From Escherichia coli (GTDB lineage Bacteria > Pseudomonadota > Gammaproteobacteria > Enterobacterales > Enterobacteriaceae): a stretch of 64,000 bases of DNA. Below, piece after piece: positions 35,503 through 35,916 of this stretch. The first letter of the stretch is position 1. Each line of letters begins with the position of its first letter. The notes below the pieces were generated by a model, which was not told where the DNA came from, did no database searches, and saw only the letters and a list, made by a program, of their open reading frames with translations. The stretch lies in assembly GCF_003334405.1 (NCBI RefSeq), contig NZ_QOWM01000009.1. One strand, written 5' to 3'. Made by a program: the position numbers and the translations under genes.

Positions 35503-35670
35503 TTACTGTGCAGTAGGACCGCAACCGCCAATGATTTTAGAAATAGAAATTGCCGGGTGCAGCAGGTAGTCGTAAGAGCAGTTCTTATCACGGTTTTCAA
35601 TATGACCAGTACATGCAGTTAACGTAGCCAGTACTGCACCTACCAGTGCAACTTTAATAAATTTGTTCAT
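35503..35670 (-). CDS. yhfL: Small lipoprotein (55 aa)
   Basis: Not in ORF track (under 60 aa); hand translation MNKFIKVALVGAVLATLTAC.. with lipobox LTAC, ending ..GPTAQ and TAA at 35503-35505. Confidence 0.8.
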   Translation of the reverse strand: MNKFIKVALVGAVLATLTACTGHIENRDKNCSYDYLLHPAISISKIIGGCGPTAQ

Positions 35671-35889
35671 TTACATTCCCTATGTATTATATATTAATTA
35701 ATATTCATTGATTATATGAATATAAGCAGACTGCTCGTTAAGAACGATACAGGAATATTTAATTGGCGTCAGTGAGCGAATGACTTAATTTTGTAAGTCG
35801 CTGTAACGGTGAATATAACCCATTAGCAGATAATATTTATTAAGGGGCTATGTTTTATTTGCTGAATATATAAAAAGAGTCATTAAGAA

Positions 35890-35907
35890 GGCCAGAATTC
35901 TCTGGCC
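35890..35907 (-). terminator. Terminator hairpin directly after the cysG stop
   Basis: Palindrome GGCCAGA-attc-TCTGGCC; the minus-strand transcript continues UUCUUAAUGACUCUUUUUAU. Confidence 0.65.
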
Positions 35908-35916
35908 CGGGTTAAA

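Follow-up and report, generated by a model that had tools for sequence, protein, structure and literature searches.

We consider it quite likely that the AT-rich stretch upstream of yhfL in Escherichia coli is the native regulatory spacer of this gene, and that yhfL itself is an old, vertically inherited core gene. In this arrangement, the nirBDC-cysG transcript would be ended by a hairpin at the start of the spacer, and yhfL, we infer, would be transcribed from one or two sigma-70/sigma-S-type promoters within it. A short AT-rich leader with a good Shine-Dalgarno sequence would then lead to yhfL translation, and an intrinsic terminator of its own would close yhfL. The product would presumably be lipidated at Cys20 and carried, as a mature peptide of 36 aa, to the outer membrane.

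The DNA analysed, a 64,000-nucleotide stretch that we call the window, is K-12-like. It corresponds to the reverse complement of MG1655 around 3.47-3.535 Mb, to which it is 99.97% identical over 62 kb. Read along the minus strand, the genes are nirB, nirD, nirC, cysG, yhfL, frlA, frlB, frlC, frlD, frlR, followed by the convergent yhfS. The annotated genes cysG (35917-37290) and frlA (33871-35208) lie on either side of yhfL. The 55-aa yhfL reading frame (35503-35670, minus strand; yhfL/b3369, annotated as “DUF4223 domain-containing lipoprotein YhfL”) and the 246-bp cysG-yhfL spacer (35671-35916; 3,499,202-3,499,447 in MG1655) are located exactly where the original prediction had placed them. 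We assign to the spacer the cysG terminator, the candidate yhfL promoter or promoters, and the 5' leader; the MG1655 annotation has no feature inside it.

The contrast in base composition between this spacer and its GC-rich flanks, as originally claimed, is real. The spacer has a GC content of 31.7%, compared with 54.7% for cysG and 54.6% for frlA; the yhfL coding sequence is at 42% and the window at 52%. The lowest-GC 246-bp stretch of the whole 64-kb window falls here (28.5%, at 35645-35890), and the next-lowest place is at 34.6%. The AT-richest run, first quoted as striking, spans 41 nt (35685-35725) at 7.3% GC, and only one other 41-mer in the window, in the nirD-nirC spacer, is equally AT-rich. 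TpA steps are similarly dense: the spacer contains 34, or 13.8 per 100 bp, against 4.1 for the window.

Nevertheless, the composition of the spacer lies at the low end of the normal E. coli intergenic range, within a populated tail. Of 36 annotated spacers that are 30 bp or longer, it has the third-lowest GC content (mean 45.8%, sd 8.6; z of about -1.6), and among spacers of at least 200 bp it has the lowest. We counted seven equally AT-rich segments in 214 kb of K-12 DNA, made up of the 64-kb window and three arbitrary 50-kb pieces, or about one per 30 kb. Segments of similar AT-richness elsewhere in K-12 include the ybbP-rhsD and pgi-yjbE spacers. The sliding-window GC analysis thus bears out that this is the AT-richest 246 bp of the window, but not that it falls outside the range of ordinary intergenic DNA. 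AT-richness of this kind is often simply the look of promoter and leader DNA between co-directional E. coli genes.

The same tendency is seen across genera. The 100 bp upstream of yhfL are AT-rich in all gene contexts, with a mean of 34% GC against 53% for the loci. The extreme values are restricted to Escherichia, Citrobacter, and Klebsiella oxytoca. Enterobacter-type cysG-yhfL spacers are 143 bp long and have 42-48% GC, which indicates that extreme AT-richness is unnecessary for yhfL expression.

The yhfL unit is a fixed part of the E. coli chromosome. The original prediction had offered a small horizontally acquired insert as one source of the AT-richness, in which case yhfL and its AT-rich upstream DNA would form a small islet between cysG and frlA. 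Such an origin might be read from the low GC of spacer and gene next to neighbours at about 55%, and from the in vitro binding of H-NS discussed below. However, when an 801-bp query spanning the region was compared with complete E. coli genomes, 5426 of 5426 gave a match, with yhfL and its spacer at the same site. The spacer alone also matches all 5426, at 87-100% identity, with at least 80% of its length covered in 5385. K-12-like, O157:H7, and frl-less strains share one YhfL protein accession (WP_001031834.1). In one E. coli genome that we examined, yhfL is missing, having been lost via an IS1-associated deletion.

Beyond E. coli, yhfL is present across Enterobacterales, with homologues that are 58-100% identical. 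Identities of at least 69% are found in Salmonella, Citrobacter, Cronobacter, Erwinia, Mixta, Serratia, Hafnia, Edwardsiella, and Xenorhabdus, while the Proteus homologue is at 58%. YhfL matched 160 species genomes in all, of which 80 loci were kept for synteny; in 46 of these, the gene immediately upstream of yhfL is cysG. This adjacency extends to Citrobacter, Enterobacter, Leclercia, K. oxytoca, Buttiauxella, Cedecea, and Hafnia. Across the 80 species, the GC content of yhfL tracks that of its host (r = 0.72) while averaging 7 points lower, which fits long residence. We found no tRNA genes between 28000 and 40000 and no mobility genes (integrase, IS) in the annotation of the locus. Flanking repeats are only 10-14 nt long and compatible with chance; TGAATATAA occurs three times in this AT-rich DNA. 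The acquired-insert reading is refuted by this distribution, and an islet origin has only a minimal probability.

Instead, it is the neighbouring frl operon that varies. The frlABCDR operon and its promoter region form a 5,242-bp accessory segment (30185-35426, minus strand), flanked by the stop codon of yhfS and the terminator of yhfL. A query reaching into frlA is covered to at least 80% in only 3293 of the 5426 E. coli genomes, and frlABCDR is missing from about 39% of E. coli. In the frlA-less genomes among the matches listed, homology ends at 35427, where the tail of the yhfL terminator has its final base. In strain B36, positions 30185-35426 (frlRDCBA and the frlA promoter region) are replaced by 30 bp, and yhfL adjoins yhfS. 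The same yhfL-yhfS adjacency is found in E. whittamii, E. albertii, several Citrobacter, and Buttiauxella. With yhfL beside yhfS both in these outgroups and in B36, the frl operon is the inserted segment; its GC content (about 54%) is host-like.

The unit is delimited by two hairpins, of which one is a canonical terminator and the other is less so in K-12. The yhfL intrinsic terminator (35427-35460, minus strand) consists of the stem GCCCTCTGGATTTTCCGAGGGC at 35439-35460 followed by GTATTTGTTTCT at 35427-35438, a GC-rich hairpin with a direct T-run. Folding of the surrounding 91 nt gives -26 kcal/mol (z -2.7). In frl-less E. coli, the homologous sequence begins exactly at 35427, which shows that this terminator belongs to the conserved yhfL unit. 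At the other end, the cysG hairpin, taken as the nirBDC-cysG terminator, lies just past the cysG stop codon (35889-35908, minus strand; -13.7 kcal/mol, z -2.3). It is 96% paired, with two compensatory pairs, across eight Escherichia and Citrobacter sequences, a level that was equalled by 39 of 500 shuffles. The claim that yhfL is bracketed by two terminator hairpins therefore holds fully for its own terminator; for cysG, the hairpin is present but its T-tract in K-12 is short (TTCTTAAT). Other E. coli (O157, B2) and Escherichia alleles carry TTTTTCGTTT or T7 at this point.

The state of the cysG hairpin bears on whether yhfL is expressed mainly as the final gene of the nirBDC-cysG transcript. 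Here, a leaky hairpin would let transcription continue into yhfL, expression would follow anaerobic, nitrite, and nitrate conditions, and the spacer would be mostly a passive linker. The genes are co-directional, their synteny is widely kept, the K-12 hairpin tail has no proper T-run, and the hairpin escaped the terminator scan. Against this, in the other Escherichia alleles a hairpin with conserved pairing is followed by canonical T-tracts, RNA polymerase holoenzyme binds within the spacer, and the promoter-proximal sequence is conserved. Furthermore, yhfL is found away from cysG in many genera, and an EcoCyc-style listing gives nirBDC-cysG and yhfL as separate operons (table in PMC3946193). 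We thus regard read-through as an unlikely main source of yhfL expression.

Conservation within the spacer is concentrated on the side of yhfL. Reading from cysG to yhfL, the cysG hairpin is followed by a variable, indel-rich segment of about 100 bp and then by a block of about 150 bp that is well kept within Escherichia. Strongly divergent spacers occur only in Escherichia outside E. coli proper and in an E69-type allele. The yhfL end of the conserved block comprises the AT-rich leader and ACATAGGGAATGTAAATG, which carries AGGGAA. This motif, at 35676-35681 on the minus strand and 5 nt before the ATG, reads as a Shine-Dalgarno sequence, and the block ACATAGGGAATG that includes it is invariant in Escherichia and Citrobacter amalonaticus.

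Two candidate promoters can be proposed within the conserved block. The first, TTAACG-19-TATAAT (35711-35741, minus strand), has 10 of 12 consensus matches for sigma-70 and would start transcription near 35704, giving a leader of about 34 nt. Its 19-bp spacing is suboptimal, with 16-18 bp expected, and its TATAAT -10 box is retained in E. coli and absent from Citrobacter. This promoter is a published prediction, made after genomic SELEX had placed an RpoD holoenzyme site in cysG>yhfL, a spacer listed as type-B (PMC3946193). A sigma-S (RpoS) holoenzyme SELEX peak has also been reported in vitro between cysG and yhfL (PMC5493296). The alternative candidate, CTGACG-17-TATCGT (35744-35772, minus strand), has 8 of 12 consensus matches and would start near 35737, with a leader of about 67 nt. 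The alignment columns of both its hexamers are invariant across Escherichia, C. amalonaticus, and C. sedlakii, and the pattern also occurs in Intestinirhabdus and in Enterobacteriaceae bacterium 89. Judged by consensus, neither candidate is strong, and a standard promoter scan called none on the yhfL strand of the spacer.

The AT-richest run, 35685-35725, covers, when read on the minus strand, the TATAAT -10 box together with the greater part of the putative 5' leader. This overlap suggests that the run singled out as striking is the yhfL -10 region plus leader. A palindrome, ATATTCAT-N7-ATGAATAT, lies inside the run at 35701-35723. We rejected it as a conserved operator, as it is missing from C. 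amalonaticus and C. sedlakii, the closest Citrobacter relatives. Sites for sigma-E, RcsB, Fur, and ArcA in the spacer were compared by eye only; they were unconvincing and were dropped.

For two co-directional genes, a spacer of 246 bp is long, and some of its sequence is conserved within Escherichia, so that an unannotated small RNA or micro-ORF could be suspected. However, neither strand of the spacer contains an ORF of 20 aa or more, and an Rfam search over 33000-38500 with E values up to 1 gave no match in it. RNA folding of the leader region is not distinctive (z -1.06), nothing is annotated in the spacer in MG1655, and the conserved part is the promoter-proximal region. We consider a hidden RNA or peptide gene here to be highly improbable.

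The spacer does bind H-NS in vitro. Shimada et al. 2014 (PMC3946193) give it the mark “HNS”, which denotes the 987 H-NS sites that they obtained by genomic SELEX in vitro, and thus one part of the original prediction, that this is H-NS-type DNA, has published backing. The composition agrees: as with other H-NS-bound DNA, the AT tract lies far below the genome average, and the in vitro binding can be attributed to the spacer being so rich in A/T and TpA steps. Such binding suggests that yhfL expression is probably damped by H-NS; expression is also probably raised in stationary phase or stress via sigma-S.

The other part of that prediction, curved DNA silenced by H-NS, fares less well. Predicted intrinsic curvature of the spacer is only moderate, in the 1.5th-6th percentile of the window, as ranked by a wedge-model path calculation with Bolshoy parameters, which is usable for ranking within the window only. 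Several places in the window bend more strongly, for example the tsgA-nirB promoter region. The spacer has three A/T tracts of at least four bases, and these are unphased. It would seem to be flexible, TA-rich DNA rather than classic curved DNA, and the curvature idea is weak. We also searched for the high-affinity H-NS nucleation motif, which is TCGATAAATT-like, as TCGWTWAATT (Lang 2007 type). With up to two mismatches allowed, the whole window contains 184 matches against 163 expected, which is no enrichment, and the K-12 spacer has matches only with two mismatches. In the E69 and E. whittamii allele, TCGATATATT is a site with one mismatch to this motif.

A stronger role for H-NS can be envisaged, in which silencing is the main point of the spacer: the DNA would act as a nucleation patch that keeps yhfL off in the laboratory until an anti-silencer or an environmental signal relieves it. 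The SELEX site, the lowest GC of the window together with very high TpA density, and the same AT-rich character in Escherichia, Citrobacter, and K. oxytoca would all be in keeping with this. Yet the binding has been seen only in vitro, the patch of AT-rich DNA is short, at about 300 bp, and neither curvature nor motif content is exceptional. Moreover, sigma-70 or sigma-S RNA polymerase alone binds the same spacer, and Enterobacter spacers are not very AT-rich. YhfL is also under strong purifying selection, as seen from the invariant residues in its homologues, and thus the gene is evidently used. In vivo repression by H-NS as the principal function is therefore a possibility, but a doubtful one.

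The regulatory spacer most closely resembles a published group of promoters. Like the spacers upstream of osmB, yhcN, and feoA (“constitutive promoters carrying H-NS sites”), it binds both sigma-70 holoenzyme alone and H-NS in SELEX. In common with that set (Shimada et al. 2014), it has a very high AT content and precedes a small gene of the envelope or stress type; indeed, the cysG>yhfL spacer is itself one entry in the list (PMC3946193). It differs from the set in being short, without phased A-tracts or strong predicted curvature, and in serving a core gene rather than foreign DNA. A second comparison is with xenogeneic silencing by H-NS (Navarre 2006, Lucchini 2006 type), with which it shares a low GC content relative to the genome and H-NS binding in vitro. 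Unlike DNA silenced in this way, the yhfL unit is universal in E. coli, syntenic across genera, and without mobility genes.

Spacer evolution might also be regulatory in its own right. Reportedly, Oren in 2014 and Thorpe in 2018 developed the concept that intergenic regions can vary or be “switched” across the E. coli pan-genome. The cysG-yhfL spacer is like these regions in that it is 87-100% identical within E. coli, with cysG-proximal indels, while the YhfL protein is constant. However, all E. coli spacer alleles align over their full length, which is fast divergence and not unrelated replacement. One could accordingly picture the spacer as a fast-evolving regulatory switch, with lineages differing in the degree to which yhfL is coupled to the FNR-/nitrite-induced nir operon and not to its own H-NS-/sigma-S-controlled promoter. 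This speculation stems from identical YhfL across E. coli lineages whose spacers differ by up to 13% with indels, and from the K-12 lineage having lost part of the cysG terminator T-tract. We give it little credence. If true, it would hint at a role for YhfL in anaerobic or nitrosative envelope physiology.

The product of the gene has the features of a small lipoprotein. The 55-aa precursor contains a signal peptide and the lipobox L17-T18-A19-C20, and Cys20 is invariant in 60 homologues, so YhfL is presumably lipidated at this residue. Outer-membrane sorting follows a general Lol-avoidance rule, and by this rule the Thr at +2 suggests that YhfL is sorted to the outer membrane. The 36-aa mature peptide has two further invariant cysteines, C31 and C50, which probably form a disulfide, and a highly conserved core, CSYDYLLHPAISISKIIGGCGP. 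All homologues have a precomputed match to Pfam PF13978 (DUF4223), and the RefSeq name is “YhfL family protein”. An NCBIfam model search with YhfL gave no match, a PDB search gave no solved relative, and the AlphaFold model is of low confidence (pLDDT 63.5, pTM 0.32) and uninformative on function.

Small stand-alone lipoprotein genes such as osmB are known from Enterobacteriaceae. Like them, yhfL is one short gene that has a promoter and an intrinsic terminator to itself, and it encodes a precursor whose signal peptide carries a lipobox and whose mature part is very small. It is unlike them in that its family (PF13978/DUF4223) has no solved structure, NCBIfam match, or confident predicted fold. 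Literature searches on the locus tag and on DUF4223 returned nothing useful, and the supplements of an FNR/NAP paper, searched for in vivo H-NS binding, contain no mention of yhfL. In published work, YhfL appears as a putative outer-membrane lipoprotein, and a hit in a Salmonella CRISPRi screen was not reproduced by the deletion mutant (PMC12070745).

The yhfL gene, its family, the in vitro promoter, and the H-NS site are already on record, and the importance of the spacer beyond housekeeping is little. The useful outcome is the correction of a composition-based reading: low GC here marks a native promoter region and not foreign DNA, while the accessory element next to it, the frl operon, resembles the host in GC. 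The case warns, in a small way, that composition by itself is no evidence of horizontal transfer. YhfL, in turn, is a conserved enterobacterial lipopeptide that may merit study for itself.

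The frl operon is the variable element of this region. E. coli genomes either carry or lack the whole of frlABCDR with its promoter region (window 30185-35426; 5,242 bp), and ~39% of the complete genomes lack it. The segment is bounded exactly by the yhfS stop codon on one side and by the last base of the yhfL terminator tail on the other; strain B36 carries 30 bp in its place. We find that yhfL adjoins yhfS in the outgroups and that, therefore, it is the frl segment that looks like the insertion, as judged from gene order. Its GC content (~54%) is host-like despite this insertion-like distribution. 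At the far border of the segment, the frlR-yhfS spacer (window 30184-30334) is GC-rich (58%) and contains palindromic repeats resembling REP/BIME elements, such as GCCGGATGCGATGCTGGCGCATCTTATCCGGCCTACG.

At the near border, the yhfL-frlA spacer (window 35209-35502) has been described in two contexts. A 2026 bioRxiv preprint (10.64898/2026.05.27.728231) reports that, when an E. coli strain adapted to wild-type mice kept germ-free, this intergenic region was its sole target of parallel adaptive mutation. Shimada et al. (PMC3946193) list a predicted promoter, CTGACA-18-TTTAAT, within the spacer, and their mark for in vitro H-NS sites is absent there.

The AT-rich neighbourhood of yhfL is also a target of IS1 elements in E. 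coli strains. In NZ_CP023371.1 (match H1 of the search across the yhfL region), the match to the 801-bp query is split in two, and the annotation beneath it shows an IS1B transposase. This suggests an insertion in that genome. In strain FCI56 (locus L090, NZ_CM172715.1, 2288-3061), IS1A occupies the place of a deletion comprising part of frlC, frlB, frlA, yhfL, and most of the cysG-yhfL spacer.

The upstream region of yhfL differs among genera. A palindrome, AAATGGA-N3-4-TCCATTT, is conserved 40-110 bp upstream of the gene in the Citrobacter freundii group, Enterobacter, Lelliottia, Pseudenterobacter, and Superficieibacter (loci L018, L023, L027, L030, L036, L063, and others). Many of these carriers also have a strong hairpin, GAGTAGTCC-N6-GGACTACTC, farther upstream; neither element is found upstream of yhfL in E. 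coli. In the genera that carry them, the palindrome and hairpin could represent an operator or an RNA structure.

Citrobacter youngae ATCC 29220 has two yhfL-family genes in one genome (L023 and L059). One stands beside cysG, whereas the surroundings of the second differ and are lower in GC (47%), suggesting that the genome holds a paralogue or has acquired an extra copy. Contig CACSKA010000004.1 (L077), labelled Chryseobacterium sp. 18061, carries cysG followed by yhfL, and its CysG is 88% identical to that of E. coli. Almost certainly, either the assembly is mislabelled or the contig is a contaminant of enterobacterial origin.

According to the curvature model, the strongest intrinsic bends of the window are predicted at the tsgA-nirB promoter region (~41068-41310), the aroK-hofQ spacer (~15694-15850), and near 55.6 kb (~55621-55780), all three exceeding the yhfL spacer in modelled curvature. 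Apart from the yhfL spacer, the nirD-nirC spacer within the nir operon (window 38116-38240; 125 bp, 31% GC) is the sole place in the window with a 41-nt stretch of ≤7.3% GC (38126-38169). Rfam matches to sroE and IsrM in this spacer are sub-threshold, far under gathering scores, and are probably due to chance.

Within window 35889-35916, compared with loci L088 and L089, 4-5 T residues directly 3' of the cysG terminator hairpin have been lost from the K-12 allele relative to O157:H7 and B2-type E. coli: the hairpin is followed by TTCTTAAT in K-12 versus TTTTTCGTTT in those strains. With this loss, the terminator of nirBDC-cysG could allow more read-through in K-12.
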